A stretch of 61,781 nucleotides of DNA, the filler included, from Chloroflexota bacterium (GTDB taxonomy: Bacteria > Chloroflexota > Chloroflexia > QHBQ01): the NCBI GenBank assembly GCA_043754535.1. It is 6 parts of 6 records of this genome, joined end to end, with 100 filler letters (N's around TTAATTAATTAA, not from the genome) between each part and the next. Parts side by side here need not be neighbours in the genome. Positions count along the whole stretch, not along the records: positions 2,583 to 22,618 come from JAYUUN010000002.1; 5 more parts are not named here. One strand, written 5' to 3'. The position numbers were made by a program, and so were the translations under genes. The notes beneath the pieces are model-generated. The model was not told the origin of the DNA, did no database searches, and was given only the letters and a program-made list of their open reading frames with translations. Shown piece after piece: positions 3,911 through 61,435 of the stretch. Every line of letters starts with the position of its first letter. Positions within the stretch are counted from its first letter, which is position 1.

Positions 3911-4002
3911 GCAACATTATAGCGGTATTGTTCTTGCTTCACGTAGTTGCTGTCCTCCAGGCACGAACAGGGAAGTAGTCTAGTTGAGGTTTGTGAACGC
4001 TA

Positions 4003-4929
4003 ATGACCAGGATATTTGTTGTTGATGACGACCCGGCAATCCGCAGCCTGCTTCAGGTTGCACTGTCGAGTCACGGCTACGAGGTGATCACCGCCAATGA
4101 TGGGGCCGAGGCTCTGCCGCTGATCCTGCGGAGCCAGCCAGACCTGGTGCTGACCGATGTTAGTATGCCAAAGATGGACGGCAACCAGCTTTGTAACGCG
4201 CTGCGCTCGGATGCGCGCACCGCCTTCACCCCAGTGATCTTCCTCAGTGGCAACAACTCTGTGGAAGATAAGGTTGCTAGCTTCGGCATCGGGGCAGACG
4301 ATTATGTGACCAAACCAGTTTCTATGCAAGAGTTGTTTGCTCGCATTGGAGTGCAGCTACGCAAGGTTGCCGAGCGCGGGATTATCAATTCACTGACCCG
4401 CCTGCCTGGTGGTGGACGCGTCGAGGACTTCCTCAAGATGATGCTCAACCGCGAGGGCGTGAGTTTCGCTGTCCTCTACGTCGACCTGGACAACTTCAAG
4501 GCCTACAACGACTACTATGGCTTCGTGCGTGGCAACCAGGTAATCATCCTGCTGGCCGACATACTGCGCGAGATCATGAGCGACGAGGATGGTGAGTACA
4601 ACTTCACCGGCCACATTGGGGGTGATGACTTTGTGTTGGTGACGACCTATGAGCGAGCCGAAGCGATTGGCCGCCAGATCATTAGCGAGTTCGATAGCCG
4701 GGTGCGCGATCTCTACGACCCACCCGACCTGGAGCAGGGTTACATCGTTACCAGGTCGCGGCAGGGCAACCCCAAAGCCTTCAAAATCATCAGCGTCTCC
4801 ATCGGCGTAGTCAACAACAAGTTCCGTCGGGTAACCAGTCTGTTGGATATTGGTGAGATTAGTGCGGAGGTCAAGCGGGCAGCCAAGCGCATCAAGGGCA
4901 GTTCCTTCTACGTAGACAAACGCAGATTA
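4003..4929 (+). CDS. Response regulator receiver + GGDEF(GGDDF)-type domain; ends at TTA 4927-4929 (standard code reads through to 8163)
   Basis: IFVVDDD...LTDVSMPKMDG...DDYVTKP receiver; YVDLDNFKAYNDYYGF...GHIGGDDF; domain ends at SFYVDKRR followed by TTA. Confidence 0.85.
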
Positions 4930-4935
4930 TGCCAC

Positions 4936-4965
4936 TTGTCTACTGCACCCACTTTGTGCTATAAT
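4936..4965 (+). promoter_or_regulatory. Sigma70-type promoter for the glycosyltransferase gene
   Basis: TTGTCT-18 nt-TATAAT with extended TG, 9 nt upstream of ATG 4975. Confidence 0.65.
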
Positions 4966-4974
4966 CCCCCTGTT

Positions 4975-7900: not shown

Positions 7901-8163
7901 TGTTCATGCTAGCAAAGTTGGCTCCTGCCCCGCTAGCCCGACGAGAATGGCGGGCCTTCCTGCGTCACAGCCTGCGCGCCTACTGGCAAGCCTACCTCGG
8001 CGGTCAGCGCACATACCGCCAACAGGCCGACTTGCAGGGGCGAGTTGTGCGCTCACTGCTAGCGAGCCTGCCACGCTTGTTGGCTCAGAGGCGACGGATC
8101 AAGCGGGCGGCGAGGGTCAGTGACCGCCAGATCAGGGCTTGGACGACGAAAGGGCAGGGATGA
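4975..8163 (+). CDS. Multidomain glycosyltransferase: GT4-like domain + coiled coil + GT2 domain
   Basis: HILIVSDD...MAGPGVRNWELA, WAGGIWDWFD, FSFRTRLLDY (GT4-like); VVIVNYNG, VDNASRDGS, LLNNDT, FFMYYEDTDLSWR (GT2). Confidence 0.88.
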   Translation: MTENHILIVSDDLVAAKMAGPGVRNWELARALVRAGQRVTLASPGAQFAPPTHDFGDRLTLIGYERDGDNGPLRAVASSVDLIFAHGFTLHFLPFLREVGKPLAVDVYNPFTLEDLPRKVAGGLDAVVVDDFLEYQRVLNAQLRAGDFFLCASEKQRDYWLGMLTANQRVNPHNYAADETLRLLIDVLPFGISSTPPQAVGHALKGVHPGIAADDKVIVWAGGIWDWFDPVTLVQAMPLVLRDEPRARLFFMGTRHPNAVVPPSRKVAEATASSRALGLLDSAIFFNDWVAYDQRAAYLLDADLGTSIHLDHLETRFSFRTRLLDYIWAGLPMVISGGDSISEFVAAEGLGQVLPVNANAGQVAAAILAVLRTPRTEFAGRFAAVQPTVTWDRVAAPLLRFAAAPYFAADRLAAGQSLYPSDAERVRTDLEQQLERVVTAKDEFTAQVIRDKDELIGGLELGVAEQQAYTAQVIRDKDAFLTQVVADKDAYFERIVGERDAEIARLQAVTSAQAEEIGWRAEVMARQENELHGYRSSRFVQVARLPRRLADRLKQTQAMRQAERERNAPIIIPAEVALDKYVAHVNELEDGIANLLTPFVTVVIVNYNGLHFLEQCLSALANDVLDYPAESYEVVMVDNASRDGSVAYVRERYPWVQVVANERNLAFAAGNNEIMQAAPGEFVVLLNNDTRVESGWLRELLVAAVRHPQAAALTSKLLFYYRRLPLTLEASSFNPAALDQSGDGRDLGVMVLGIEYGAGVQPPVSAVEYGRGYYPLEGAGAAVYRWTAGAATAYVPFTDAAQPLPLTLRLNLSRPPWAGPLHLRLRVGDTVLAEFAAPEDGTIHLSVPPALLASVPEAIQNVGSLLLKDGSGRDRGAVVVGNAQSYEADAGQYEREEEVFAFCGAGVLLRTAALKEVGYFDDHFFMYYEDTDLSWRLRLAGWQVWYVPKAVVRHIHAGSSKEWSPFFTYHVLRNRLFMLAKLAPAPLARREWRAFLRHSLRAYWQAYLGGQRTYRQQADLQGRVVRSLLASLPRLLAQRRRIKRAARVSDRQIRAWTTKGQG

Positions 8164-9752
8164 AGGTAGGCATCTACAACCGTTGGCTGCACACAATGGG
8201 CGGTGGCGAGCGGCATATGGGGGCGATAGCCGAAGCCCTGGCCGCCGATCCTGCCAACAGCGTTGAACTGTTGACTGACCGTCTGGTTGACCTCACCACT
8301 CTCGGCCATCGCCTCAATCTCGACCTTAGCCGAGTCAGTCTGCGCCTGCTACCTACCAGCCCTGTGCGCCACAACTACACGGTGCAGATGAATGCCAGCT
8401 TCGACTACGACCTGTTCATCAACGCCTCACACCTCGACCTGTTCCCCGCCTTTGGCCGCAAGAATGTAGCCCTCGTCTACTTCCCCTCGCAACTGCCCCA
8501 GGTTGGCAGCCAGCGGTCTGTTTTGCGGCGGGCAATGGGGCCAACGGCGGCGGTGCGGCTGTTCGCGGGCTTTCACGGGGTAGAGCAGAGCGTGGGCGGC
8601 GGGCTGATCAACTGGACACAGGAGCGCGCCGCTATCCTGCTGCCGACTAGCCCGCGCGACCGTGCCGAGGGGCTAGTGGTGCAGTTGGTTGGCACGGCAC
8701 CGCGACCAGGCGGCGAGTCAACCATCGTGCGCTTCAGCCTCAATGGGCAGCCGCTGGAGACGGAGTGGCGCGTGCCAGCCGACAACTTCAGCGTGCATAC
8801 GCTACCCCTGCCGCGCACCATAATCGCTAGGAGTGATCAGGCATTGTTGACGCTGGCAGTAGACACGCCGTTCACCCCCAGTGCGGCAGACCAACGGCTG
8901 TTGGGCATCGCACTCAGCCAGATCAACCTGGTGCGGGCTGCTGGCGGCGACTATCTTGCCCGCTTGCTCCGCCGCCGCTACGCTGGCAGCCCGCAAGTGT
9001 GGGGCTGGCAGGCGCAGAACGATATGCGGGCAGTAGCCGCTAGCCTCGATCAGGTCTGGGCCAACTCGCAGTTTACCGCACAGTGGATCGCCCGCTACTG
9101 GGGGGTGCAGGCGGAGGTACTCTACCCGCCCGTGGATGTAGACAGCTTTGGGCCGGGAGCGAAGGTGGCGCGGGTGATCAGCGTCGGTCGTTTCTTCGCT
9201 GGCAGCCACAACAAGAAGCATGACGTGATGGTGCAAGCCTTCCGCGACCTCTGTGACGCGGGTCTGCGTGGCTGGGAGTATCACCTGGTCGGCAATGTGG
9301 GCGACCGGGAGGAGGACGCAGCCTACCTGGAGCGGGTGACGGCTCTGGCCGAGGGCTACCCGATCTACGTCCACTGCGACGCGCCGTTCAGCGATCTGCA
9401 AGCCCTATATGCGGGCAGCAAGCTGTTCTGGCACGCGACCGGCTACGGCGAGGACATAGAAGCCAGCCCCGAACGCTTTGAGCATTTTGGTATCACCACG
9501 GTAGAGGCGATGGCGGCGGGTTGTGTGCCAGTGGTGATCGCGGCGGCGGGCCAGACCGAGATCGTGCGGCAGGGGGTTGACGGCCTGCTCTGGCACGACC
9601 TTGCCGAACTGAAGGCGATGACCCTGGGCCTGGTGGCCGACGACGGGCTACGGGCAAAGCTGGCGGTGGCAGCAGTCGAGCGTAGTCAGGAGTACGACAA
9701 GAGGCACGTGATCGACCACCTGCACGAGTTGGTTGCAGGGTTGGAGCTTTAG
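8160..9752 (+). CDS. Glycosyltransferase family 4
   Basis: MGGGERH N-terminus, EHFGITTVEAMAAGCVPVV motif; ATGA overlap with the upstream stop. Confidence 0.9.
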   Translation: MKVGIYNRWLHTMGGGERHMGAIAEALAADPANSVELLTDRLVDLTTLGHRLNLDLSRVSLRLLPTSPVRHNYTVQMNASFDYDLFINASHLDLFPAFGRKNVALVYFPSQLPQVGSQRSVLRRAMGPTAAVRLFAGFHGVEQSVGGGLINWTQERAAILLPTSPRDRAEGLVVQLVGTAPRPGGESTIVRFSLNGQPLETEWRVPADNFSVHTLPLPRTIIARSDQALLTLAVDTPFTPSAADQRLLGIALSQINLVRAAGGDYLARLLRRRYAGSPQVWGWQAQNDMRAVAASLDQVWANSQFTAQWIARYWGVQAEVLYPPVDVDSFGPGAKVARVISVGRFFAGSHNKKHDVMVQAFRDLCDAGLRGWEYHLVGNVGDREEDAAYLERVTALAEGYPIYVHCDAPFSDLQALYAGSKLFWHATGYGEDIEASPERFEHFGITTVEAMAAGCVPVVIAAAGQTEIVRQGVDGLLWHDLAELKAMTLGLVADDGLRAKLAVAAVERSQEYDKRHVIDHLHELVAGLEL

Positions 9753-9762
9753 AGAGGTTGCA

Positions 9763-12066
9763 ATGGCACAAGTAAACAGGCGTAGTGGGCGGCTAGTGGA
9801 TGCTGGGGTGCTGATAGTGTATGGGCTGATCACAGTGGTGATGACCTGGCCGCTGACGGTTACACTTGGTCGGCGGGCCAATCTTTCAGGTAGCATTGAC
9901 GAGTATATGTTCGTTTGGGGCTTCTGGTGGATGCGCTACTCTCTGCAAGACTTGCACACATGGCCTTTCCACACAGATTTGCTCTACCACCCTTTCGGTA
10001 CAGGTCTTGCTTTCCACGGCGGCCTCGTGCCACTGATCAGCATCCTTACCATCCCAATCCAGAGCATTTGGAACGCGGACACTGCCTACAATCTAAGCTC
10101 GCTGCTCGCTTTCGGCTTCTCTGCCTTCACCATGTACCTGCTGCTCAAGTACCTCGTTGCCAACCGCTGTGCTGCTTTCCTTGGCGGCGTGGCTTATGCC
10201 TTCTGCACCTACAAGTTCATGCAGCTGGGCCATCTGCACATCCAGAGTACTGAGTTCTTCCCACTCTACATCCTCTTCCTGATCAAAATGCTACGTGAGG
10301 AAGCGTATCAGTGGCGGCACGCTGCATTTGCGGGTCTTTGCCTGGCCTTCATCTTTCTTATAGATTACTACCAGACTGTCTATGCCATGTTCTTCACAGT
10401 CTGCTACCTGATCTACTATCTACTAGGTCGAGAGGGAGGTAGGACGGCAGCTAGTTGGCTGGCAGGACGGCGGTTGATTAACGGTTCAGCTCTGCTAAAG
10501 TTGGTTCGAAGACTGGCAATCCTTGGCCTAGTCTTTACAGTGGTAGGTAGCCCCTTGATCTTTGCTATCGTGCGAGACCTTGGCGCAGGAAACTATGTCA
10601 AATGGGGAGGAGAAAACATCTTCTATACCGACCTTGCTGCCTTCTTTGTACCCTTCACTCCTCTACTGAGCAGCTTCTCTTGGGTGCAGCAGGCTAACAT
10701 CCCGATCATCCACGATGGTGGCGTAGAGTCAGCTGCGTACTTCGGCTGGATGACGATCATCCTGATCAGTATAGGCACCTCGTTGCTGTGGCGCAAGCGT
10801 GCTGACTTCCGCTACTGGTTGGTCTTCCTACTGGTCAGTGTCCTCTTTGCTCTTGGGCCTGAACCACGCTTTCTAGGCTACCGCCTGCCGATCCCTGCCC
10901 CATACACTGTGTGGCAGTCAATACCCTTTCTCAATAATGCACGCTCGCCCTCACGCTTCAACCTGCTGATTACCTTTGCAGTTGGCGTGTTGGTAGCATA
11001 CAGTGTGGGTGCGATCATGAATGCACTTGCTAGACGCTTGAACAAGCGGCGGCTGGTGGCCGCTACTGTTCTTTTCCTTCTGATCGTGACCCCTGTAATG
11101 CTGGCCGAACACTACGTCATACCTCTGTACTTTCCTAAAAACTACCAGATCAACCCTGCTCCATATCTAGAGCAGATAGCGAGCGAACCAGGAGACCGTG
11201 CGGTGTTGACCTTGCCTATCGCAGGTGCGCTCAAGCCACAATTCGGTATCGAGCGGATCATGTATGACCAAACCTTGCACCACCATCCCACCTTTGGTGG
11301 CAGCATCTCACGACCACTAGCTACCTTCTACAACTACTACATTAGTGAAGAGTTTATCGCCATGCTTACCCCTGATCCTAGCAATCTCAGGGTTGCCAGC
11401 GTAGCGATGCAAGCGGTACTGAGCAATACAAAGGCTATGGCCTTCTACCGCTTGGATGCTGCCAGGTTGGCCTACTACACCAACATTGGCTACCTGGTTG
11501 TTCACCCACCAGCTTTGCCTGTCGGTGCCGGGTTGTTCATCAGCCAGACCATGCCTGTCGATCTGGTGTACATGAGCAAGTCCAGCTATGCACAATCGGA
11601 CACAGTAATTTACCGTGTGCGTGAGGCAGAGGTGGCACAGCTAGCGCAGACCGATACGGTGCAGCCAGGCCGCCTAGAAGCCAGTGTCTTCAGGCTGGAG
11701 GGCTGGGAGCAGATTGGCAAGAGCGGCCCCTTCGCCTGGACAACGGCGCAGGAGAGCGAACTGCTGACTACGGTGCAGGAGCCAGCCAACTACAGCGTAA
11801 CCATCCGCGCCGTACCCATGCTGCAAGCGGGCAAGCCACAGACGCTTACCTTCTACCTCAACGACGAGCAGCAAGCGGTGGGTAGCATTACCTTCGACCG
11901 TGATGGCTGGCGCGAGGAGACGATCAGCATCGGGCGGGAACACTGGCGGCTGGGGATGAACAAGCTGCGGCTGCGTACCAGCTACATCACCAGGCCGAAC
12001 AACGGTGATGGGCGGCTGCTGGGGGTGGGGGTGGAGTGGCTGAAGTTCACACCAACGGGCAAGTTA
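9763..12066 (+). CDS. Polytopic membrane protein, YfhO/GT-C-like; ends at TTA 12064-12066 (standard-code end 12114)
   Basis: Many TM helices, FHTDLLYHPFG, ARSPSRF, QTLHHHPTFGG motifs, C-terminal beta domain ending DGRLLGVGVEWLKF; in a GT operon. Confidence 0.75.
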
Positions 12067-13887
12067 GCCGTGCCGCTCTGCCTTCCTTGCGCTGGCCTCA
12101 GCGAAGTAGGCTAGCAGATCGTCCAGCGAGCGGGTGTTGAGGATGTCGGCGGCAGTAGCCCAGCCGCGTCTTGCGTTGGCGACCCCTAGCTCGGCATTGG
12201 GCGCGAAGCCGTCGGGGTGATGTGAGTCGCTGTCAATGGTCAGCTTCACGCCTGCTTGCACCGCCCAGCGCACGTAGCGGCTGTCCAGGTCGAGGCGTTC
12301 GGGCGAACCGTTGATCTCCAGGGCGGTGCCAGTTTCCGCTGCTGCCGCGATCACCTGCTCCATATCGAGGTCGGCTGGTTCGCGGCTGATCAGCAGCCTG
12401 CCGGTCGGGTGGGCGATGATATCCACATGGGGGTTACGCATTGCCCCGATCATGCGGGCTGTCACCTGCTCACGGGGTTGGCGCAGACCGACGTGGACGC
12501 TGGCGACGACCACATCCAGCCCCGCCAACACGGAGTCGGGGAAGTCGAGGCTGCCGTCCAGCAGAATCTCCATCTCCACGCCATGCAGCAGGTGAAAGTC
12601 CAGCCCCTCAGCGGCAAACTGCGCATTGATGCGCCTGATCTCTGTTGCTTGCTGCTCAAGGCGGGCTGCATCCAACCCCCGCGCAATGGTCAGCGAGTGG
12701 GTATGGTCGGTCAGGCAGGCGTAGCGGTAGCCCTGGGCGGCTGCGGCGCGGGCCATCACCTCAATCGGCTTTGCGCCGTCGCTCCACTCGCTGTGCATAT
12801 GCAGGTCGCCGCGCAGGTCGGCGACCTCTACTAGCTTCGGCAGCGTGCCAGCGATAGCTGCCTCGATCTCGCCCTGCCCCTCGCGCAACTCCGGGGCGAT
12901 GTAAGGCAAGCCCAGGTGGGCGTAGACCTCGGCTTCGGTCGCGCAACGGATCGTCTCGCCCGCTGGTTCGCCACCTTGCAGGGGGGTGAGGCCGTACTCG
13001 TTGAGCAAGTAGCCGCGTTCGGTCGCCAGCGTGCGTAGCTGGATGTTGTGCTGCTGGCTGCCAGTGAGGTGCTGCAAGAGGCTACCGTAGTGGTCGGGCG
13101 GCAACACCATCAGGTCAACGCGTAGCCCATTGCGCAGGTGGATAGTCGCCTTCGTGTCGCCGCCTATCACCTGCTCGGCCTGGGGCAGGCTGGTGAAAGC
13201 ATCAACTACCGCCTGGGTATCCGCAGCGGTTGCCAACAGGTCAATATCGCCGATGGTTGGCAGCCGCCTCCGCAGACTGCCCGCCGCCTCCAGCCGCTCG
13301 ACCGCAGGCACCCGCCGCCGCAGGGTGGCGATCAGGTCGCGGGCGATGGGCAGGGCTGTGCCAAGCGGGGTACGATTGTCGGCCTGGCGCAGCAGCGCAA
13401 TCCCTTTGAGGATGGTTTGCTCTGCCTTCAGCCCCTGGCCGGGGACTGTGCGGATGCGGCCCTCGTGCGCGGCGGCCTCCCACTCATCAAGCGTGGTAAT
13501 GCCCAGCTTGTTGTAGATCGCCATTACCGTGCGCGGGCCGATCTCTGGGATGCGGGTGATCGTAATCAGGCCGGGTGGCACTGTGGCGCGCAGGCGGTCA
13601 TAGAAGGCCAGTGCGCCTGTCCTCATCAACTCGTCAATCTTTTTGCTGATCGCCTCACCCACCCCAGGGATTTCTAGCAGCTTGCCCGCCCGCCAGACCT
13701 CGACCAGATCGGCAGGCAGATTGAGGATGGTGTCACCGGCCTTGCGGTAGGCCCGCGACTTGAAGGGCGACTCGCCCCGCAACTCCATCATGTCGGCAAT
13801 CTCAAAGAGGATACGAGCTACGTCGCTGCTGCTCGACCGTGCTTCGCTATCCAGCGGCGGGGTGGCGACGGTTGTCTGCTCAGTCAT
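12064..13887 (-). CDS. polX: DNA polymerase/3'-5' exonuclease PolX (PolX + PHP domain)
   Basis: AGSLRRRLPTIGDIDLL, TGSQQHN, GDLHMHSEWSDG, TDH, DSDSHHP; GGAGGG RBS before ATG 13887. Confidence 0.95.
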   Translation of the reverse strand: MTEQTTVATPPLDSEARSSSSDVARILFEIADMMELRGESPFKSRAYRKAGDTILNLPADLVEVWRAGKLLEIPGVGEAISKKIDELMRTGALAFYDRLRATVPPGLITITRIPEIGPRTVMAIYNKLGITTLDEWEAAAHEGRIRTVPGQGLKAEQTILKGIALLRQADNRTPLGTALPIARDLIATLRRRVPAVERLEAAGSLRRRLPTIGDIDLLATAADTQAVVDAFTSLPQAEQVIGGDTKATIHLRNGLRVDLMVLPPDHYGSLLQHLTGSQQHNIQLRTLATERGYLLNEYGLTPLQGGEPAGETIRCATEAEVYAHLGLPYIAPELREGQGEIEAAIAGTLPKLVEVADLRGDLHMHSEWSDGAKPIEVMARAAAAQGYRYACLTDHTHSLTIARGLDAARLEQQATEIRRINAQFAAEGLDFHLLHGVEMEILLDGSLDFPDSVLAGLDVVVASVHVGLRQPREQVTARMIGAMRNPHVDIIAHPTGRLLISREPADLDMEQVIAAAAETGTALEINGSPERLDLDSRYVRWAVQAGVKLTIDSDSHHPDGFAPNAELGVANARRGWATAADILNTRSLDDLLAYFAEASARKAERHG

Positions 13888-13979
13888 AAACGCGCTCCCT
13901 CCTGTAATTGCTAGCTGTGGTAGCAGAAAGGCGCACCCGCGTGCGCCCAATCTACTGCTTACCGACATAATTGATGTGA

Positions 13980-14570
13980 TAAGCTGGGGTTGACTGGGGT
14001 CAGGTAGTCCTCGTTGAGGATGTCATCGTCGTCATCCTCCTCCTCATCGCGCAACAGATAGAACAGGAGCGCACCGACCAGGGCCAGGACGATCAGCAAT
14101 GGGCTGAAACCACCGCCACCCTTCTTCTCGCCCTGCTTGCCATAGTTACGCAGCCACTCCACGTTGTCCTGTTCGGCGCGAATGTGCTTGGCGAGGGTGT
14201 CGGCTACGTCGTCGCTCACTTCAGGTAGCTTGTCAATGTAGCTCTTGATGCCCATCGCTTCTCCCCGCAGGCTGCCTTCCAGCGACGAGTAGTCGGACTT
14301 CTGGCTGCGCAACTTGCTGCTCAAGCCCACGACTGCCTCAAACGGGCTGCGCTTGTCCAGGCTCTCGGTATCGCCGCCCAAGTCTTCGTAGAGGCTGATC
14401 AGTTCGTCGCGGCGACGAGCAGCCTGATTGCGGAAGGTGGCGTACTGCTTACGTAGCTTCTTGTCCCCAATCTCCTCAGCAGAGCTATCGTAGGCTTCAA
14501 TGGCGATGTTGTTGCCCTTGACCAGTTCCTCGATAGCCTTCAGCGTCTTTTTGTCTGGCTTGTTGCTCAT
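13980..14570 (-). CDS. DUF2383/PA2169-like four-helix-bundle protein with C-terminal TM helix and acidic tail; first TTA at 13980-13982 (standard-code end 13959)
   Basis: Ferritin-like pattern (GNNIAIEAY...GEAMGIKSY), TM segment LLIVLALVGALLFYLL; AGGAG RBS. Confidence 0.65.
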
Positions 14571-15680: not shown

Positions 15681-17318
15681 TTAAGCTGTTGCCAACTCGC
15701 GCTCATGGCGCAGATCGTACTCCTCGTCGAGGGCCGTCGAGCGGTGCAGCATGGTGCCACCCGCCGCCTGCAAGTCTTCACCAACGCGTAGCATCTTGCC
15801 CGCCAGTCCGGCTCTACGGCTGGCCTGTCCCTTGAGCAGCACCACGCTGCCACCTTCACGGGGTTCGACCCGCGCCCAGAGGCGGCGCACCGGGAAGTAG
15901 AAGACGAGCATGATGCCGAAGATCATCAGGGTGCTAGCAACCACTACCAGGTTCATACCGGGATCGCGCCCAACCTGGAGGCCGCTGAACAGCCGTTCAC
16001 GCTGGAAGGTGACGGTCAGCCCCTGCTGGCTGCTACTCTGCCGCTGGCCGAGGGTAGCCTCCCACAGCGGCTGGTCGCTGCGGATGGCGTAAGCGCGCAG
16101 GTACATCTGGCCCGGCTTCACCTGCTCGTCACCCTGCCCAGCAGAGGAGACCACATCAACCTGCACCTCACCATTGCCGAGGCTGAACGAACCCATGGGC
16201 CGGGTGGGGCCATACATCTTGCTGCGGTAGGCTAGCGGCACGCTACCTTTGTAGACTGTCACCCCAGTCGCGTCCTTCACCTCGATGTCGGCAGCATTGC
16301 CAAAGAACGCCTGATGGAACTTGACCCCATCAATGTCCAGCGGGTCATTGACGCGGATCGTTTTGCGGGCGATCTCCTGGCCGTTACGGGTCACGGTCAG
16401 GTCACTGCGGTAGTCTGCTGGGCGACCGTCTGGATAGTTCTCCGAGAAAAAGCCATTGTTGTAGACGACCAGGCCCGTCCCCTGGCCCACTTCACGGCTA
16501 CTGCCTTGCGGCACGGCGAAGTCCACTAGCTTGAAGCTGTCACCCATCAGCGTTCCCCAGATCGCGCCAATGAAGATGAGGACGATACCGATGTGGTTGA
16601 GGTAGGTGCCAAGCGGCAGCAGGTGGAAGCGGTCGGCGTAGAAGCTGCGCGAGCCGTCCTCATCAGCCTGACTTTCCTGGTAGCGCACGCGCAGGCCGCC
16701 CGCAAGGGCAGCCGGTAGTTTGGCCGCTACCTCGTTGGGGGTGGCGGCGAACTGATAGCTGGCGGCATACTCACCGTGGGCGTAGAAGCGGGGGCCAACC
16801 TTCATGCGAGTGGCGGTCGCCTGCTTCCAGGTGGCGGGCAGGCGGTTGAGGGTGCAGACTACTATGTTAAGGGTCAGCACCGCCAGCAGCCCCTTGAACC
16901 AGAGCGTGCTAAAGAGGTTGAACAGGCCGAGGTCGAACATGATCCCGGTCAGGTCGCCAAAGCGCGGCTGCATCCCGGTCGTCCACATCTTGCGGCTGGC
17001 AGGGTCACCGAGCAACTCTGGCGGCATCTGGATGATCACGGTGCCGAGCAGAGTGGCGAAGGCGATCAGGGCGATCAGGGACATCGCCAGCTTGACCGAG
17101 CAGAAGAACCGCCAAACCGCCTCGCCAAAGCTGTTGACGCGCACACGGGCGGAGGTTTCGATCACCGGCACGGTCTCACGCTCTGCCTTCTTTGGCATGA
17201 AGGGAGCAGAGGGAGGGACGATCACCCTCACTTCGTCGTTGACCAGGGCAGTCTCGCCCCGCGCAACCCGACGGCGGCGTTCCTCCCGTTCCTTATTGCT
17301 GTTGATTTGGCTAGCCAT
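15681..17318 (-). CDS. resB: Cytochrome c biogenesis protein ResB/CcsB
   Basis: FFCSVKLAM...GTVIIQ, CTLNR, YLNHIG, IRVNDPL, GRDPGMNLV. Confidence 0.92.
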   Translation of the reverse strand: MASQINSNKEREERRRRVARGETALVNDEVRVIVPPSAPFMPKKAERETVPVIETSARVRVNSFGEAVWRFFCSVKLAMSLIALIAFATLLGTVIIQMPPELLGDPASRKMWTTGMQPRFGDLTGIMFDLGLFNLFSTLWFKGLLAVLTLNIVVCTLNRLPATWKQATATRMKVGPRFYAHGEYAASYQFAATPNEVAAKLPAALAGGLRVRYQESQADEDGSRSFYADRFHLLPLGTYLNHIGIVLIFIGAIWGTLMGDSFKLVDFAVPQGSSREVGQGTGLVVYNNGFFSENYPDGRPADYRSDLTVTRNGQEIARKTIRVNDPLDIDGVKFHQAFFGNAADIEVKDATGVTVYKGSVPLAYRSKMYGPTRPMGSFSLGNGEVQVDVVSSAGQGDEQVKPGQMYLRAYAIRSDQPLWEATLGQRQSSSQQGLTVTFQRERLFSGLQVGRDPGMNLVVVASTLMIFGIMLVFYFPVRRLWARVEPREGGSVVLLKGQASRRAGLAGKMLRVGEDLQAAGGTMLHRSTALDEEYDLRHERELATA

Positions 17319-17911
17319 AACTTTGCAAACCCATATTTGATAGTCAAATCTTTGAGCAGGGCTGGATTGAGTGGGCCAAGCTGGATGTGGACGATCTTGC
17401 CCGTGCTATCGAGCAGGAAGCTGCTGGGGGTGGCGGCCAGCTTGTAGGCTTTGGTTACGGCCCCATCGAGGTCGAGCAGGATAGGGAAGCTGTAGAGGGC
17501 AGTCTTGCCATCGGGCTGCACGTAGTTCTTGACCGTCGCCGCATCCTCGCGGATGTCTACACCAATCACGGCAAAGCCAGCGGCCTTGTACTGGGCGTAG
17601 GTGTCCTCAAGGTCGGGCATCTCGGCGCGGCAATCGGCGCACCAGCTAGCCCAGAAGTTGACGAGGGTCAGCTTGTTAGCCTTTGCGGTCTGCATCAAAT
17701 CTACAGTGTTGCCGCGCCAGTCGCTGAGGGTGAAGCCGGGCGGCTGGCTGCCAATGGCGATCTCTACCTGCTGACCGTTCTTGAGGTCGCCCACAGCCTT
17801 ACCATCACCATCTTGCAAGCTGCCGACGGCCCCGCTAGTGTTGTCGCAGGCTGCCAGTACCATCAAGGCCAGGGTGACGACCAACATCAGGTTGATGCGC
17901 TGCTTGATCAA
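17318..17911 (-). CDS. resA: ResA/TlpA-family thiol-disulfide oxidoreductase lipoprotein; ends at TTA 17318-17320 (standard-code end 17228)
   Basis: Lipobox LAAC, LVNFWASWCADCRAEMP, TPSSFLLD; first gene of the resABC-like operon. Confidence 0.88.
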
Positions 17912-23723: not shown

Positions 23724-24089
23724 TAAAGAACGTGGTAGCCCGGCGACCAGCAGTAGCAGTGCGCTAACCGCCAGCAGCAGCGCAGCCCCAGCCACCGCCA
23801 GCGTCACCCCCGGCTCAAGTCCCTGCTTGCGGGTGGCAATGGCGTTGAAGGCACAGACGGTACCGAGGATCGCCAGCAAGCCGAAGCAGGGTTGCAAGTA
23901 GGCAGCGAATGCCCCCAGGCTGCTCAGCACCCCCGCACAGGCGACCGCGAGGGGGGTATTGGGGTCGGGCAGGTCGGTGTTGTCTATCCGCCAGCGGGCG
24001 GCACGTTGGCGCAACTCCGCCGCCTCGGCCTGCGTCAGTTGCTCGTCGTCGTCCAGTTCATCGAACTCGTCAATCTGGTTGCGTCTCAT
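23724..24089 (-). CDS. Small membrane protein (DUF4190-like); ends at TTA 23724-23726 (standard-code end 23589)
   Basis: Acidic N-terminus plus three TM helices; TTA immediately after the last helix. Confidence 0.6.
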
Positions 24090-27199: not shown

Positions 27200-28627
27200 C
27201 TATCTGCCAGCGGGTTGTGGCACCATGGCTAAGCGGGTTGGGGCCACGCTGCTGGCTGCTGGCTGTGCTGCCCGCCGCTGTACCTTCATCAGCACGTCAG
27301 CGTTTGGTCGCAGGGTCAGGATCGGGGAGAACCCTACTGTCCCCTGCCCCTGCGCGGCGAAGCGCACGTGCTGGCAGATGGTGGCGAGTAGTAGTTGTGC
27401 CTCCATCAGGGCGAAGTGCATCCCGATGCAGATGCGTGGCCCTGCCCCGAATGCCATGTAGGCATAGCGTGGCAGCGACTTCTCGAACTCAGCAGTCCAA
27501 CGGTCAGGGTTGAAGCGTTCTGGCTCTGGGTAGTAGTCGGGTCGGTGGTGGATGCTGTAAATGTCCACTACCGGTACGTGCCAGCGGCTGATGCGGTAGC
27601 CGCCCAGTTCGTAGTCGTGCAGGGGTTGGCGAGCAATAGAGTCGGCGGGCGGGTAGAGGCGCATCGCTTCCTTGACCACTTGTGCGCTGTAGGGCAGGTT
27701 GGCGAGGTCAGCGTAGGTGGCAGCCCTGCCTTGCAGCGCACCGTCTACCTCGGCCAGCAGCTTGTCATAGCTGGCTGGGTTGTTCGCCAGCAGGTAGAAG
27801 GCCCAGGTGAGGGCGACGGCAGTCGTCTCATGCCCGGCCAGAAAGAGAGTGAGAGCTTCGGTTAGCACCTGCTGGTCGTCCATGCTCTGCCCCTGCTCAT
27901 CCTTCGCCGCCAGGAGCATGGAGAGCAGGTCGTTGCGTTCCTCTGGGCTGCGCTTGCGCTCGTCAATCATCGCCTGTACCCGCTGCTGAATGATTGCGTT
28001 CGCCTGCCGCGCCCTGCGGTTGGCGGCGGTTGGCACCGCGAGTGGTAGTTGGAAGAGCTGTGCGGTGCGCTTGCCAGTGAAGGTGACGACCTCCGCCACT
28101 GCTGCGCCAAGCTCATCCGCCTCGCTGAAGACCTCGGCATCGAACAGAGCTTTGCCCACCACCCTCATTGTCAGGGCAGCCATCTCGTGGCTAATCTCGA
28201 CGGTGGCACCCTCGCGCCAGCCCGCCTGGGCCTGCTCTGTATAGCGCACCATCGTCTCGGCGTAGCTGGCAACGCGGCGGGCAGTGAAGGCGGGGGCCAT
28301 CAGCTTGCGTTGCTTGCGCCAGTCCTCCCCCTCACTGGTGAACAGCCCATCGCCTGCGAAGGCAGTACGGAAGGCGCGGGCGATCCCCGCAGGCTTGTTA
28401 TTGTCGGCTGCGTGTTCCACCATCAGGCTTTGCACCAGGTTAGCATCGGCTATCACGATCATTTTGAAGGGGCCGAAGTAGACCCAGCCAATCGGCCCGC
28501 ACTCGTGCGTCACTCGGCTGAGGAAGCTGACGCGGTTCTTGCGGAACAGGCTGATGTTGCCAAACATTCGGTTGTTGCTTACCGCTGGCATCTTGCGGGC
28601 GGGGCTGGCTTGCGTCTTGGTTACCAT
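27200..28627 (-). CDS. Cytochrome P450
   Basis: AGHETT I-helix, EAMRLYP ExxR, FGAGPRICIG heme motif; GAGG RBS before ATG 28627. Confidence 0.96.
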   Translation of the reverse strand: MVTKTQASPARKMPAVSNNRMFGNISLFRKNRVSFLSRVTHECGPIGWVYFGPFKMIVIADANLVQSLMVEHAADNNKPAGIARAFRTAFAGDGLFTSEGEDWRKQRKLMAPAFTARRVASYAETMVRYTEQAQAGWREGATVEISHEMAALTMRVVGKALFDAEVFSEADELGAAVAEVVTFTGKRTAQLFQLPLAVPTAANRRARQANAIIQQRVQAMIDERKRSPEERNDLLSMLLAAKDEQGQSMDDQQVLTEALTLFLAGHETTAVALTWAFYLLANNPASYDKLLAEVDGALQGRAATYADLANLPYSAQVVKEAMRLYPPADSIARQPLHDYELGGYRISRWHVPVVDIYSIHHRPDYYPEPERFNPDRWTAEFEKSLPRYAYMAFGAGPRICIGMHFALMEAQLLLATICQHVRFAAQGQGTVGFSPILTLRPNADVLMKVQRRAAQPAASSVAPTRLAMVPQPAGR

Positions 28628-30577: not shown

Positions 30578-30722
30578 GCAACCTTACCGCCAACCTTACA
30601 ACTATCTGCGCCTGCCTTATGCGATTTGGCAAGGGGGTACCAATTTGCCAGTACCTTTTAGCCAAAAGTACCAGCCTTAATCTGCCGAAGCTGGCGTATA
30701 ATAGATAGTGGGTTAGGAGGAA

Positions 30723-31352
30723 GTGGATCAGCAGGAAAGCGAGGACACGACTTTGCACTTGGAAAGCGGCAGTTTGGGACCACCAATACTTAGCGGCTCT
30801 CTACACGGCTTTTCAGCCGCTACTCTCCTCTCGTTGTTGAATATGCAGCGGCAGACCGGCTTGTTGTCGCTCAACAATCATGGCTACTCAGCCCTGATCA
30901 TGGTAGAGGACGGCGAAGTGGTGGATGCCGAACTGGGCCGCCTGCGCGGATTGCCAGCCCTCTTTGAAGGGGCTTCGTGGCGCGAGGGCGAGTTCACCTT
31001 CTTCAACTGTCCCACCACCGAACGTACGATTGAACTACCGCTGACCGTGATCCAGGTGCGTGTGCGCTTGTGGCTCGACCGTTGGCGTGAGGTACTGAAC
31101 ACCATCCCCAGCCTCGGTTGCCTGATCTCGGTGCGCGACCACCCCAGCGGGGACGTGATCATCAAGCCCTACCAGTGGACGATCCTGACCAGGGTTGTCG
31201 GCGGGCCGCAGAGCGTGGCCGACCTCGCCGCTGCGCTCAACGAAGACCCGCTGACCGTCGCGCGCGTCTGCTACGAACTGCTCGGCCTCGGCCTCTGCCA
31301 GGTGCAGCCCGCGATGGATGAAAGCTGGCAGGCCAGCCGCGTGCTGGTCTGA
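30723..31352 (+). CDS. DUF4388 (PATAN-like) domain protein
   Basis: LSGSLHGFS...QTGLL...DGEVVDAE...WREGEFTF; AGGAGG RBS before GTG. Confidence 0.8.
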   Translation: MDQQESEDTTLHLESGSLGPPILSGSLHGFSAATLLSLLNMQRQTGLLSLNNHGYSALIMVEDGEVVDAELGRLRGLPALFEGASWREGEFTFFNCPTTERTIELPLTVIQVRVRLWLDRWREVLNTIPSLGCLISVRDHPSGDVIIKPYQWTILTRVVGGPQSVADLAAALNEDPLTVARVCYELLGLGLCQVQPAMDESWQASRVLV

Positions 31353-31379: not shown

Positions 31380-33374
31380 TAAGCGGGCCGCCGCGATCAG
31401 CTTGCCCCCAATGATCGCTGCCAGGCCCTGCGCCCGCTTCATCCCCTCGTCATCCGTTACGTAGTTGCGTCCATAGCTGAACTCGACGGTGACGACGGCA
31501 TTGGCGTAGCGGTAGACGATCTGGGTAGTACCTAGCGGGTAGCTACCACCTTCGCGCGCACTTTGGCGCACTGCTGCCACCTCACCTACGCCCACGAACT
31601 CCAGCCAACCTGCACTAGCCAGGGCCGCCTGCTGCTCGGTCATCGCCACCGCTGCCCGCGCTGCATCCTGGTAGATCGCCACCGTCTCAGTGAAGTGCCG
31701 GAAGCCGTCTGGCTTCTGGTAGTGTGCAGTGTAGAAGTAGCTACCGCGCTGCTCGCTGACCAAGCCGTAGCCAGGGAGCAGGTCGTCGCGGTTGGCGGCA
31801 TAGCGGCTGGCAGGGACGGCCACACGCAGTTCATCAGGCAATATTGGGGTTGGCACTGCCATAGTTGGCCCAGCAGTTGGGGCGGCAGTAGCAGACTGGG
31901 TGGCGGGTGGTGGGGTCGGCGTGGGCGACCCATCGCAGGCAGCCAGCATGGCAAGCAACAGCAAGCTAGCTGCCAACTTTGACCTACGGCCACGCCAGCC
32001 GACCCAGCCGAGGGCGGCCAGGGCCGGGGGGAAGACCACCCAGGCCAGCCAGTTCTCGAAGTACGTCACCGCCACCTTCTCCTTTGCGAACGAGTAGAAG
32101 CTAAAGGCAAGCAGGCCACCAGCCAGGAAACCGAGCAGCACCGCCAGCCAGCCGCCTTGTGGCCGCAGCGCGACGAAGGGCAGCAGCCAGGCCACATACC
32201 AGGGCTGCCACCAGACCAACGCGAAGGCCAGCAAACAGGCGAAGAAGCTGGCTGCCCCACCAATCAGGGCATCGTCGAGGTCGGTAGCCTGCCACAAGCG
32301 GCTTGCCTGCCAGAGTGCAAAGCCAACCGCCAGCAGCAGCCCGCTGGCAATGAAGAAGCCACGAGCCTGGGCCAGCCCGAAGCCGAGGCTGACCGCAGAC
32401 TGCACCCCCAACGCAGCAAACGAGTTAGTCAACAGTTGGCCGCGCTGCAAGGGAGCGAAGCTGGCGAACCCCCGCCAGTAGGGAGCGTAGCAAAGTAGCG
32501 CAATCGCCAGGCTAAACCCTGTACCAGCCAAGAGACCGCTAAACATCTTTGGGCCAAACTTGCGCCAGCTGTAGACCAGCGCAGCTGGCAGCAGCAGCAG
32601 CGGCACGAACTTGACTAGTACCGCCAGGGTGAGTAGCGGCATCGCCAGCCCTAGCCTGCCGCGTAGCAGCGCAAGATAGGCGGCCAGCATGAACACCACC
32701 ATGGTCAGGTCATTGTGGCCGTTGCCGATGCTCTCAAAGAGGACGAGTGGGCAGGCGGCAAACAGGTAGCCTGCCCGCAGCGGGGCAACCCCCAATTGCC
32801 GCGCCAATGCCGCCACCAGCCCCCAGCAGCCCGCCCACGAAATAGCAGCCAGTAGCTTGAGGCCGAGCAGGTTGGCAAATAGGCTGTCACCCCCCAGTCG
32901 GCTAGCCACTGCTGCCAGCAACTCCCAGACTGGGCCGTAGGGCGAGGGGTCGCGCTGCCAGGCGACATAGGCATAGAAGGGGTCGCTGGCGAACTGCTGT
33001 GGCAGGTCGGTGAAAGGGTTGCCACCATAGTGCGTGCTGATACGGGCGCGAAAGAGCGCGTCGTAGATGTCGCTAGAGGTGAGCGGGTAGAAGAACAGCA
33101 TCATCGCCGCCGACAGTAGCGGCCCAGCCATGAGTAGCCAGCGCAGACAACCGCTCGGCTGCTGTGGTAGGGTGTAGGCGGTAACAGCATAGGCCAGCAA
33201 ACTGGCGACGTAGAGGCCAAGATAGCGCAGGTGGATCAGCGCGCTATCTAGCCCGCCTACCCGATCATAGAGGCTGACTAGCGGGAAGTTGAGGACTACC
33301 AGCAGGCAGCAGAGCGGGCCGAGGGCGACTGCAAGCAGAGTTGCGCCGTAGCGGAGGGTAGCATTACGTTCCAT
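31380..33374 (-). CDS. GT-C/GT87-like (MptA/B-type) membrane glycosyltransferase with C-terminal lipoprotein-like extension; ends at TTA 31380-31382 (standard-code end 31035)
   Basis: SSDIYD, NPF, SPYGPVW, GNGHND, LVKF motifs. Confidence 0.78.
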
Positions 33375-35856: not shown

Positions 35857-36803
35857 ACGAACCCCCTCCTGGCCTGCCACTCCAGAGGGGCTGGGAGGGG
35901 CAGCGCGCAATGCTGGTTACCCTGACGGGACCGACGGGGGTGGGCAAGAGCGGACTGGCTCTGCGGTTGGCGGCTGCGCTGGGCGGTGAGATCGTCAATG
36001 CCGACTCGCGCACCGTCTACCGGGGTCTGGATGTGGGAACAGCCAAGCCCTCCCCCGCTGAACTAGCCGCCGTGCCACACCACCTGATCGACGTGGTGAA
36101 CCCTGACGAGAGCTACAGTCTCTCCCTCTACCAGCAAAAGGCGTATTCTATTATTGACGACTGCCTGCGGCGGGGGCGGCTGCCGCTGCTGGTTGGCGGC
36201 ACCTTGCAGTATGTAAGCGCGGTAGTGGAGGGCTGGACGATACCGACCACGCCACCTGATGCGGCCCTGCGCGCAAGGTTGGCAGCGAGCGACCCCGCCG
36301 CCCTCTATGCCGAGTTGCAGCAGGTTGACCCCAGCTCTGCTGCCAAGATTGACGAGCGCAACCAGCGGCGGGTGATCCGCGCCCTCGAAGTTTGGCACAG
36401 TAGCGGCCAGCAGTTCAGCAGCCAGCAGCGTAAGGTTGCGCCCGCCTATCGCCAACTACGCCTCGCCCTCACCTGCGAGCGCAGGGAACTTTACCGCCGC
36501 ATTGATGCGCGGGTAGATGCAATGATCGATGGGGGCTTGGTGGCAGAGGTGCAAGGGCTGGCGGCCCGCTACGGCCTCCACCTGCCTGCCCTCTCTGCTA
36601 TTGGCTACCGCCAGGTTGGAGCCTACCTGCGTGGTGAAAGCACGCTGACGCAGGCAAGCCAGCAGATCAAGTTTGATACGCACGCCTTTGTCCGCCACCA
36701 GTATGCCTGGTTTCGGCGCGACCAGGAGCTACGCTGGATCGACAACACCACTGCCGACCCTTACGACGCGGCTTTGGCGATCATTCGCGAGTTCATCACC
36801 TAA
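35853..36803 (+). CDS. miaA: tRNA dimethylallyltransferase
   Basis: GPTGVGKS, NADSRTVYRGLDVGTAKP, PHHLID, VGGT, AIGYRQ, RHQYAWF. Confidence 0.96.
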   Translation: MNEPPPGLPLQRGWEGQRAMLVTLTGPTGVGKSGLALRLAAALGGEIVNADSRTVYRGLDVGTAKPSPAELAAVPHHLIDVVNPDESYSLSLYQQKAYSIIDDCLRRGRLPLLVGGTLQYVSAVVEGWTIPTTPPDAALRARLAASDPAALYAELQQVDPSSAAKIDERNQRRVIRALEVWHSSGQQFSSQQRKVAPAYRQLRLALTCERRELYRRIDARVDAMIDGGLVAEVQGLAARYGLHLPALSAIGYRQVGAYLRGESTLTQASQQIKFDTHAFVRHQYAWFRRDQELRWIDNTTADPYDAALAIIREFIT

Positions 36804-42664: not shown

Positions 42665-42950
42665 ACACACTCACCATCTGGTCAGGCCCCAACACCGATC
42701 AGCCTATGGTCGCGCCATGCTGCGTGGCTGTTTGGCTGAGCTACGTGGTCTGTCCGAAGGCGAACGCAACGACAAGTTGTACCTCGTCAGCCTACGGCTG
42801 GGCCGGGCCGTTGCGGGTGGGTTGCTGGACGAACGGCTGGTACGGGGTGAGCTTGAGGCGGCGGGGTGCAGCATGGGGCTGGCGAGCCGGGAAGTGCGCG
42901 ACACAGTGCGCAGTGGCTTGCGTGCTGGAGCGTGGCGACCACTCCGCTAA
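42665..42950 (+). CDS. C-terminal fragment of a mobile-element primase/prim-pol-like protein (5' truncated)
   Basis: EGERNDKLY...LGRAVAGGLL...TVRSGLRAG helical domain typical of prim-pol C-termini. Confidence 0.6.
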
Positions 42951-46075: not shown

Positions 46076-46312
46076 GGCATTACGCCTAAAAGGTTAATGT
46101 AGGTGGGTGAGATCGCACAGGTGTGCGGTTCAGCACATTATAGTGAAGTGCGTTGCTGCTGTCAACACGCTACCTGAACAAAGGTAATGATGTGCATGAC
46201 CTCAGCCGCCGGTCAAGGGCCGCCTTCGGCCCTTGCCTCCGGCAGCTTGCTGGTAGGGTGAGGCAGTGGTGGACGAGCCGCTGACCTACATCACCTACAA
46301 GGAGCTTTAACC

Positions 46313-60244: not shown

Positions 60245-61435
60245 TAAGTTCGCGCCCCACGAACTGGGCAGGTGATGGGGCATGATCAGGTGGGTGAAAT
60301 TAGGCCGGTTGGGGCTGCGAAACACGCCGGGATCGGTTGGGCCGTTCAGGTCAACTGTTATCTCGACCAGCCCCAGCTTGCGGAGGGCGGCCAACATGTC
60401 CAGCAGATAGTAGATGTCGAAGCCAACCCGCAGGTTCGCCCCGGCGACTGTCAATGTCGGCAGCAGTGGCGGTGTCACATCCTCGCGGGGCGGCCAAGCG
60501 GCGGCGGTTGCGGTTCCGGTGGCACTGTCCAGCACCAGTCGCACGGTGTTGTCGTTCTTGCCCATACCCGCCGTGACCGCTTGCAGGGCCGCAGCCGCAG
60601 CCGCCACGTTCAGCCGCACGCAGGTTGACCCCGGCTGTTGCGGGATGAACTCTGTGTTGGGGCGGCAGCCCTCGGCCAGATAGACGGTGAGTCGGGTGGT
60701 AATGTCTGCGGCTGTCCACTCAAAGATTGCCCAGCTACTACGTGGGTGCAGCGACAGCGTGACCGGGACTTCAGCGGCACGGTTGGTTGGCAGCAAGGCT
60801 TTGAGAGTAGTCAGAGCCGCCGTCGGGAACAGCAACCGGGTTGCCGCCACATCGAGGTTGCCGGACTGATAGGCCAGCCGGTCGCTGGCGATGCGGAAGC
60901 CATCGCTGGTCTCTACCAGCACCTCGCCCGGCTGGTCAAACTCAAACACAACACGGCTGTACCGCTCAAGGTAGCTGTCTGTCCCAGCGACTGCGCTGCT
61001 GAACAGCGTGGCTGTAAGCGTGTCAGTGAGGTTGCTGGCAGCAAAGGTCGCCAGCACGCGATCAAGTTGTGGCTGCGCGATGATGGGGAACTCCCCCGCA
61101 TCCATACCAGCCAGCATCTCCGTTTCGCTGCTCGCCAACTGCACATCCAGCCCCGTGCTAGTCAGGGTCAAGGTCTGCCCACGTTGACCAGCTACAGCGT
61201 TGGTGATCGCCTTGTGCGGCACGGCGACCGCCCCAGCCGCTGCTACCTGTGCAGGCATGGTGACGACGATGCCCACCTCAATGTCGGTGCCGCTGATCGT
61301 GAGCTTGTCCCCCTCGCCCTCAAGTAGCACATGGCCGAGGATCGGTAGGCCCAAGGCCCGATTACCCCTTGCTACCGCCCGCCTTACCCGCTGAAGCTGG
61401 CCGCTCAGTTTGCTGGCCGCTATCTTAATTTGCAT
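60245..61435 (-). CDS. dnaN: Divergent DNA polymerase III beta clamp (element-encoded); ends at TTA 60245-60247 (standard-code end 60143)
   Basis: LPILGHVLL...SGTDIEVG, EFPII, TSDGFRIA, GFDIYYLLD, HLIMP. Confidence 0.82.

Follow-up and report, generated by a model that had tools for sequence, protein, structure and literature searches.

UUA as a probable fourth stop codon in a family of Chloroflexia: a TTA/TAA triplet shared by two convergent genes and its genomic context

The codon UUA is best explained as a fourth stop beside UAA, UAG and UGA in an entire family of uncultured bacteria of the class Chloroflexia, a reading to which, judged from sequence, a probability of about 85% may be given. 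The case centres on one triplet at which two convergent genes meet, in a stretch of 61,781 nucleotides (nt; filler included; hereafter the window) from the Chloroflexota assembly GCA_043754535.1, in which several contigs are joined by runs of N and positions 2583-22618 are contig C2. The assembly (genome G000) comprises 132 contigs and 3.87 Mb at 61.4% guanine plus cytosine (GC), with a completeness of 88.9% and a contamination of 0.7%. Its family, f1, holds five species-level genomes in two genera, g1 (G000 and G001) and g2 (G002-G004), and has f2 and f3 as sister families. In G000 itself it is very probable that UUA terminates translation. On this explanation UUA would no longer stand for leucine in f1, and a gene on the plus strand would end at the TTA at 12064-12066; since TAA reads TTA on the complementary strand, these three base pairs would also stop polX on the minus strand, and the two genes would abut without true coding overlap. 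The codon would be read by a release factor 2 (RF2) carrying an SPY...RRQTSF loop, and in g1 the apparently missing leucine transfer RNA (tRNA) with anticodon UAA, tRNA-Leu(UAA), would leave UUA without a competitor.

The triplet at 12064-12066 is read directly in the sequence as TTA on the plus strand, where it is codon 778 of the open reading frame (ORF) 9733..12114, (12064-9733)/3 being 777; it is at the same time the TAA stop of the minus-strand ORF 12064..13968. An earlier note on this DNA had proposed just such a double role, in-frame TTA for one gene and the TAA of polX for the other, and the ORF coordinates on both strands confirm it. The minus-strand product is PolX, with the Pfam domains HHH_8, pol-beta thumb and PHP, and the match to the NCBIfam model NF006375 (E 1.8e-150, model positions 5-569 of 571) ends at residue 642 of the 652-codon frame; because it ends 10 residues before the TAA, that TAA is a real stop. 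The plus-strand gene had been described as leucine-rich, some 770 codons long and free of any other TTA, and this holds: 777 codons precede the TTA, among them 99 leucine codons and not one TTA, with 15 TTAs out of frame. Its start is uncertain (TTG 9733 or ATG 9763). The product is a polytopic membrane protein, related (36% over residues 27-303) to the N-terminal part of an ORF on contig C1; the label 'YfhO-like' attached to it earlier could not be confirmed, no Pfam family matching 9733..12066 even at E≤10. In the standard code the frame continues for 16 codons to a TAG at 12112-12114 and overlaps polX by 51 nt. The codon score of the gene is 0.68 upstream of the TTA and 0.05 downstream, and no promoter-like or terminator-like site was found in 11900-12300.

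The closest homologues of the plus-strand gene lie in genus g2 of the same family. In the alignment of C-termini, ...FTPTGK is followed by TTA in G000, ...FTPNK by TAA in G004, ...FTLAK by TTA in G003 and ...FSRQP by TTA in the G002 paralogue; G004 therefore has a standard stop, TAA, at the exact codon where G000 has TTA. The G003 orthologue carries another stop 2 codons after its TTA. Past the homologous codon the four sequences are unrelated to one another, with early stops in G004 and G003. A conserved, coding overlap tail (12067-12111) is what an ordinary overlap would lead one to expect, and the tail has no counterpart in the G004, G003 and G002 orthologues.

The behaviour of this one codon is mirrored across the genome. 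Counts were made in 1759 stop-to-stop ORFs that are 300 or more codons long and whose GC at third codon positions (GC3) is coding-like. Of their 570,839 interior codons, 49 are in-frame TTA (0.09 per 1000); the +1 and +2 frames contain 3247 and 1950 TTAs. Per 1000 interior codons there are 10.4 CTA, 14.3 TTG and 2.6 ATA, and TCA, with 994 occurrences, is a used serine codon. The depletion is uniform: of the 59 contigs with 3000 or more interior codons, none has in-frame TTA above 0.45 per 1000. The position of the in-frame TTAs is equally marked, with 134 in the final 50 codons of ORFs as against 18 at 75-200 codons from the ORF end; others lie within untranslated 5' parts of stop-to-stop frames. 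In 88 ORFs at least 12 codons lie beyond the TTA; on passing it, the codon log-odds score drops from 0.54 to -0.25 and GC3 goes from 0.75 to 0.60. Controls, 1618 ORFs divided at matching distances, show 0.71 to 0.64 and 0.77 to 0.75 for the same two measures. The next standard stop follows TTA after a median of 19 and a mean of 24.3 codons; for ordinary stops the next in-frame stop, among those at most 120 codons away, follows after a median of 17 and a mean of 24.3. The tails after TTA thus resemble random 3' flank and hold no special back-up stop. Of 520 in-frame TTA events, just 29 (in 27 ORFs) have coding signal both before and after the TTA. Overall, about 7-9% of the genes in G000 would end in TTA.

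Family profiles place the ends of proteins at these same codons. From 69 eligible terminal-TTA ORFs, 33 were drawn at random and scanned with NCBIfam; 20 had matches, and none of the alignments listed for these extends more than 2 residues beyond the TTA, while in 15 of the 20 a near-complete model ends 0-19 residues ahead of it. Thus the models end at 387-388 in galactokinase (galK; TTA codon 391), at 276-277 in an SDR protein (277), at 821-825 in DnaB (832), at 552 in AroB (560) and at 314 in YaeI (318), and in DnaN (L043) positions 1-364 of the 367 in TIGR00663 end at residue 392, with the TTA at codon 403. The standard stop in the scanned ORFs lies at least 12 and up to 69 codons past the TTA. 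For comparison, where genes of the window carry an ordinary stop (PolX, CcsB, a histidine kinase and a metalloprotease), the models end 0-21 residues ahead of it. The 27 two-sided ORFs were compared with Pfam: matches were found in 20, none of the listed alignments spans a TTA, and in 11 the TTA stands between unrelated domains that are normally encoded by separate genes. Such junctions include deformylase (def) with EEP nuclease, thiamine-binding protein with biotin carboxylase, thiolase with hexapeptide transferase, AsnC with LysE, APH with RNase PH and GT2 with Dcm, among others. Nineteen further ORFs have a weaker signal on one side; 14 of these were scanned in an added Pfam run, with matches in 12, and 5 had been scanned before.

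Three long frames may be described separately. The frame G000:C1:32852-37642 (minus strand; L006) contains 1596 codons, just one in-frame TTA (codon 807) and a GH35 domain from residue 824, and is most likely two separate genes split by a TTA stop. The DnaB frame, G000:C45:29753-32440 (L052), which ends in TTA, has 895 codons for a model of 435 positions; it probably contains an intein, because the alignment falls into separate stretches and intein-containing proteins are weakly matched. In G000:C81:29237-32803 (minus strand; L018) a B3_4 domain (575-729) and a complete tyrosyl-tRNA synthetase (823-1183) share one frame with neither a stop nor a TTA between them, and this may be a true fusion.

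Moreover, TTA keeps the company of neighbouring genes in the way a stop codon does. Once TTA is included among the stops, the genome has 13 convergent gene pairs whose overlap is exactly one TTA/TAA triplet; the window contains two of these. The classical 4-nt overlap occurs in 31 convergent pairs and any length other than these two in at most 3, and the shared-triplet pattern therefore exceeds chance. TTATG stop/start overlaps account for 18 of 141 terminal TTAs. The base after TTA is G in 54% of cases, as it is after TAA (39%) and TGA (41%), and TAG differs in being followed by C (48%). Two features of stop usage in G000 are recorded here in their own right: the context TTAGC, found at 42 of 141 terminal TTAs, is a preference stronger than can be explained here, and the commonest standard stop is TAG (770 of the 1759 long ORFs).

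The relatives point in the same direction. In sampled regions, interior in-frame TTA numbers 3 in 22,213 codons for f1 (G001-G004), as against 37 in 21,076 for f2 (1.76 per 1000) and 26 in 25,569 for f3 (1.0 per 1000). Among published genomes, two-sided TTA events number 101 in 424 ORFs of f2 and f3, 1 in 104 of g2 and 1 in 44 of G001. From the low counts in G001-G004 together with the rarity of two-sided events, the trait is therefore taken to be family-wide. A metagenome contig (L265; GC 51%), unrelated and with an ordinary RF2 that has His, shows 1 TTA in 3371 interior codons and 5 in the last 60 codons of ORFs, a pattern that may be mere strong codon bias.

It is reasonably likely that RF2 reads UUA as a stop. 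In the five genomes searched, each carries two genes with a GGQ domain, RF1 and RF2, and no third GGQ or ArfB-like protein was found. The loop of RF2 is SPYDSQHRRQTSF in all five f1 genomes, and RRHTSF is present in 25 of 25 genomes of f2 and f3 (three unpublished; 22 of 22 without them); SPY...RRQTSF stands in place of SPF...RRHTSF, with Phe changed to Tyr and His to Gln. Only four fixed substitutions in RF2 set f1 apart from the rest, and the His to Gln of the loop is among them. A DNA pattern for SPYD...RRQTSF, run on 121 genomes of the class, picks out five, which are precisely those of f1, and the two solved RF2 chains in the alignment carry SPFDSSGRRHTSF at the loop. In two f2 genomes SPY is combined with His. 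Of the best 120 homologues of RF2, SPY...RRQTSF occurs in the 7 that are closest (65% identity or more), and Gln recurs in three others (P0095, P0103 and P0041); a metagenome scan with P0095 did not recover the contig of P0095 itself and gave a best match 60% identical and Gln in 2 of the 80 loci returned, L261 being the sole long one. In crystal structures of RF2 on the ribosome the loop histidine stacks on the second base of the stop codon, and RF2 tolerates either purine in the second codon position but only A in the third. UUG (14.3 per 1000) remains a common leucine codon, which suits a reader that demands A in the third position.

The tRNA complement is in keeping with the loss of a leucine meaning in g1. 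ARAGORN reports 46 tRNAs in G000, with the leucine anticodons CAA, CAG, GAG and UAG, and no tRNA-Leu(UAA). A covariance model built from four tRNA-Leu genes and applied to ten genomes found a tRNA(UAA) in all five of the f2 and f3 genomes searched and in G002, G003 and G004, and none in G000 or G001, metagenome-assembled genomes (MAGs) of 88.9% and 87% completeness. The g2 tRNAs (L134 in G002, L139 in G003 and L140 in G004) have a long variable arm, a C31-A39 mismatch and one compensatory change of a stem pair, and their acceptor stem differs from that of the sister-family tRNA; they may be relics or read-through tRNAs. A separate ARAGORN call in G000, 'tRNA-Pyl(CUA)' at C31:4032-4124 (93 nt), is probably false, given its mismatched acceptor and T stems, and is no evidence for recoding of TAG.

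Several observations weigh against a fourth stop read by RF2. The absence of tRNA(UAA) from incomplete MAGs could in principle be an assembly gap, and genus g2 retains a well-folded tRNA(UAA) though it, too, is without sense TTA. The link to the RF2 loop is correlative and comes from a single clade, that is, one evolutionary event; L261, whose RF2 loop SPFNADALRQTSF has the Gln, shows ordinary use of in-frame TTA (30 in 2400 interior codons), and SPY alone, in G013 and G024, is not accompanied by TTA loss, so that at most the combination of Tyr and Gln is associated with that loss. The serine of SPF is kept in f1, and if it equals the organellar Ser204, an equivalence that is assumed and was not located in the alignment, the route would be a different one. 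In the profile scans of the 19 further ORFs, one listed alignment, that of MFS_1 in L291, crosses the TTA by 9 residues, the model being a loose one, and the near-full-length PUCC alignment of the same ORF stops 13 residues ahead of it; profile listings give the best stretch per family only, and no family matched in 7 of the 27 two-sided ORFs (Pfam) and 13 of the 33 terminal ones (NCBIfam). Finally, the phase test proposed in the earlier note, in which TAA stops that a coding frame of the partner gene runs across are sorted by the phase of the TTA, gave 13, 8 and 6 in phases 0, 1 and 2; 13 of 27 in phase 0 against an expected one third is weakly positive and too weak to decide, and the gene list behind it is a loose four-stop set of 4074 entries that includes antisense shadow ORFs, as seen in its TAG and TGA rows. 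The decisive evidence lies in the orthologue TAA, the profile ends, the loss of coding signal and the apparent absence of the tRNA.

With termination at UUA accepted, the reader could also be RF1 or an altered ribosomal decoding centre, the change in the RF2 loop being incidental. Such a reading is unlikely, though it accommodates the single clade-level origin of the RF2 change, the presence of His to Gln in L261 without TTA loss, and five f1-specific substitutions in RF1, and green-algal mitochondria offer a precedent in which UUA and UUG stops are linked to a changed RF1-type factor in the accessible text of PMC12574857. All five RF1 substitutions, however, lie outside the reading motifs, the PxT and GRIHTST motifs being identical in f1 (5 genomes) and in f2 and f3 (10 genomes, two unpublished). 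UUA alone is affected and not UUG, which fits RF2, unlike the RF1-type UUR pattern, and the base after TTA resembles that after RF2-read stops; both published cases of UUA alone or of UUA with UCA are linked to RF2-type factors, as far as the same accessible text extends (PMC12574857).

A second alternative, that UUA is simply unassigned, is improbable. The ribosome would stall there, and the peptide would be freed by rescue or by a +1 slip onto the UAG or UAA of TTAG and TTAA. tRNA-Leu(UAA) was indeed not found in G000 or G001, a gene for transfer-messenger RNA (tmRNA) is present in the genome, and at 74 of 120 terminal sites TTA is followed by G or A, so that a +1 shift yields TAG or TAA, with the TTAGC preference pointing the same way. 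Yet T or C follows at the other 46 of 120 sites, where the slip is excluded, and a general +1 slip onto TAG or TAA is rejected on this count; G is moreover the commonest base after TGA and TAA as well. Tagging by tmRNA would degrade the products of dnaN, dnaB and galK and about 7-9% of all proteins, which seems implausible, and no ArfB-like or third GGQ protein was found in the five genomes searched. Neither is there an excess of near back-up stops after TTA, and the TTATG coupling and shared triplets are those of a normal stop.

The standard code fares worst: it would make TTA a very rare leucine codon within a 51-nt overlap and give the plus-strand protein a 16-residue tail, LAVPLCLPCAGLSEVG, and although the frame is open to the TAG at 12112-12114, convergent overlaps do occur in the genome, high GC disfavours TTA and the phase test stands at 13 of 27, it is very improbable in view of the G004 TAA at the same codon with unrelated tails beyond it, the 0.09 TTA per 1000 codons at 61% GC against 1-1.8 per 1000 in the sister families, the genome-wide loss of coding signal past TTA, the apparent fusions of unrelated genes joined only through TTA, and the lack of a cognate tRNA in the searches of G000 and G001. 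The earlier statement that the shared triplet is 'possible only if UUA terminates' is thus supported by other evidence as regards termination, and its 'only' is too strict, the overlap with TTA as leucine being possible in the standard code.

Termination at UUA would also account for further sites of the window, collected in Table 1. The plus-strand frame 3997-8163 would have 1388 codons in the standard code, with Response_reg at residues 6-117, GGDEF at 132-222, a TTA at codon 311 and the next domains from 542. The coding signal that follows the TTA at 31380-31382 would stem from the convergent ORF on the plus strand.

Table 1. Positions in the window of the shared triplet, its two genes and other TTA sites; stops at TTA are predicted.
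Feature	Position	Strand	Evidence
Shared stop triplet, TTA (plus-strand gene, putative) and TAA (polX, minus strand)	12064..12066	.	ORF frames; orthologue C-termini
Polytopic membrane-protein gene, putative stop TTA	9733..12066	+	Codon counts, codon score, orthologue C-termini
Putative non-coding read-through tail, 15 codons plus TAG, antisense to last polX codons	12067..12114	+	No orthologue conservation, score drop
polX (DNA polymerase/3'-5' exonuclease PolX), stop TAA 12064-12066	12064..13968	-	Pfam, NF006375
Putative TTA stop between response-regulator/GGDEF gene and large multi-domain glycosyltransferase gene	4927..4929	+	TTATG overlap
Putative TTA stop of DUF2383-like gene upstream of polX	13980..13982	-	6 codons ahead of standard TAA
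Putative TTA stop of AhpC/TSA-redoxin gene	17318..17320	-	Domains end 190-193, TTA codon 206, standard stop +29 codons, score 0.94 to -0.49
Probable TTA stop of small gene	23724..23726	-	Score 0.49 to -0.40; no Pfam/NCBIfam match
TTA near cytochrome P450 gene end, codon 494 of 503	27230..27232	-	P450 models end 478-487; tail too short to discriminate
Putative TTA stop of 673-codon gene (L007, no Pfam match)	31380..31382	-	Post-TTA coding signal antisense to plus-strand ORF 30717-31352
Second shared triplet, TAA of miaA (plus strand, isopentenyl pyrophosphate (IPP) transferase) and putative TTA stop of GT4 glycosyltransferase gene (minus strand)	36801..36803	.	
Putative TTA stop of dnaN (DNA polymerase III beta subunit)	60245..60247	-	TIGR00663 end, codon score

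Elsewhere in the window, at 42950-46093 and 52048-54939 on the minus strand, lie genes for a cytosine methyltransferase of the Dcm type that continues into a long fused C-terminal region, and for an SNF2 helicase resembling DrmD of DISARM (NF038317, E 1e-99, below the model cut-off); they may form a defence island.

A change from sense to stop is the rarest kind of genetic-code change and was met in the searched literature only in mitochondria and, since 2025, in one plastid lineage; a full-text literature search returned no report of such a change in bacteria. UUA as a stop is known from organelles, and a free-living bacterial family that has it was not found in the searched literature. If the fourth stop proposed here is true, a sense-to-stop change needs no tiny genome and can arise in a bacterial genome of normal size and moderate GC, and the RF2 of f1 would be a variant directly testable for widened codon recognition. 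Standard annotation of the f1 MAGs would then be wrong for about 7-9% of genes, with false C-terminal tails and false gene fusions, and, in our assessment, tools that infer a genetic code by giving each codon an amino acid may miss changes from sense to stop. A mismatch of stop codons between phage and host may likewise affect host range. The two genera may represent stages of the transition, TTA being already a stop in g2 with the tRNA still present, and the tRNA being lost in g1. The odds appear evenly balanced for the fuller picture of a four-stop Chloroflexia family that would be the first cellular, non-organellar case of a sense-to-stop change, reached by a new route through Tyr and Gln in the RF2 loop, with g2 and g1 preserving two stages of the passage.

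Among known systems, one bacterial likeness in codon usage is that of Streptomyces, in which rare sense TTA codons in a few regulatory genes depend on the bldA tRNA-Leu(UAA). There, as in G000, the genes of a GC-rich bacterium contain hardly any TTA; in G000, however, TTA stands at gene ends or between genes and the dedicated tRNA was not found in G000 or G001, which differs from regulation of the bldA type. Unassigned codons are a further likeness: AGA and AUA in Micrococcus luteus and CGG in Mycoplasma capricolum simply disappear where GC or AT content is extreme, without marking the ends of genes. As would be the case in G000, a bacterial codon is lost together with its tRNA, whereas in G000 the lost codon would have taken on a new role, terminating about 7-9% of genes.

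Other parallels are organellar. The Thraustochytrium-type mitochondrial code is NCBI translation table 23. In labyrinthulean mitochondria UUA is a stop and Ser204 of the RF2-type factor mtRF2a is replaced by Ala, Gly or Cys, according to the accessible part of PMC12574857. As far as that part goes, the likeness to what is proposed for f1 is that the same codon passes from leucine to stop with an altered codon-binding region in an RF2-type factor; the present case differs in being that of a free-living bacterium with a genome of 3.9-5 Mb and 61% GC and with Phe to Tyr plus His to Gln, as against a small organelle genome and a change of Ser204. The mitochondria of Marsupiomonadales and Pseudoscourfieldia, in the same accessible text, use both UUA and UUG as stops through mtRF1a (PMC12574857). 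They resemble the reading proposed for f1, on that account, in that a leucine UUR codon becomes a stop through a change of release factor, and differ from it in that UUG remains a common leucine codon in G000 and the reading motifs of RF1 are unchanged in f1. In the plastids of pedinophyte-derived dinoflagellates, described in the accessible text as the first case of sense to stop outside mitochondria (PMC12574857, PLoS Genet 2025), UUA and UCA are stops, the RF2-type factor is modified with Ser204 substituted, RF1 looks normal and there is RNA editing; a claim to be first outside mitochondria implies that no bacterial example was known to that study. These plastids share with the reading proposed for f1, so far as described there, the conversion of UUA to a stop, a modified RF2-type factor and the confinement of the codons to gene ends defined by homologues; unlike them, f1 is not an organelle and TCA stays a serine codon in G000, whereas in the plastids UCA, too, is a stop and RNA is edited.

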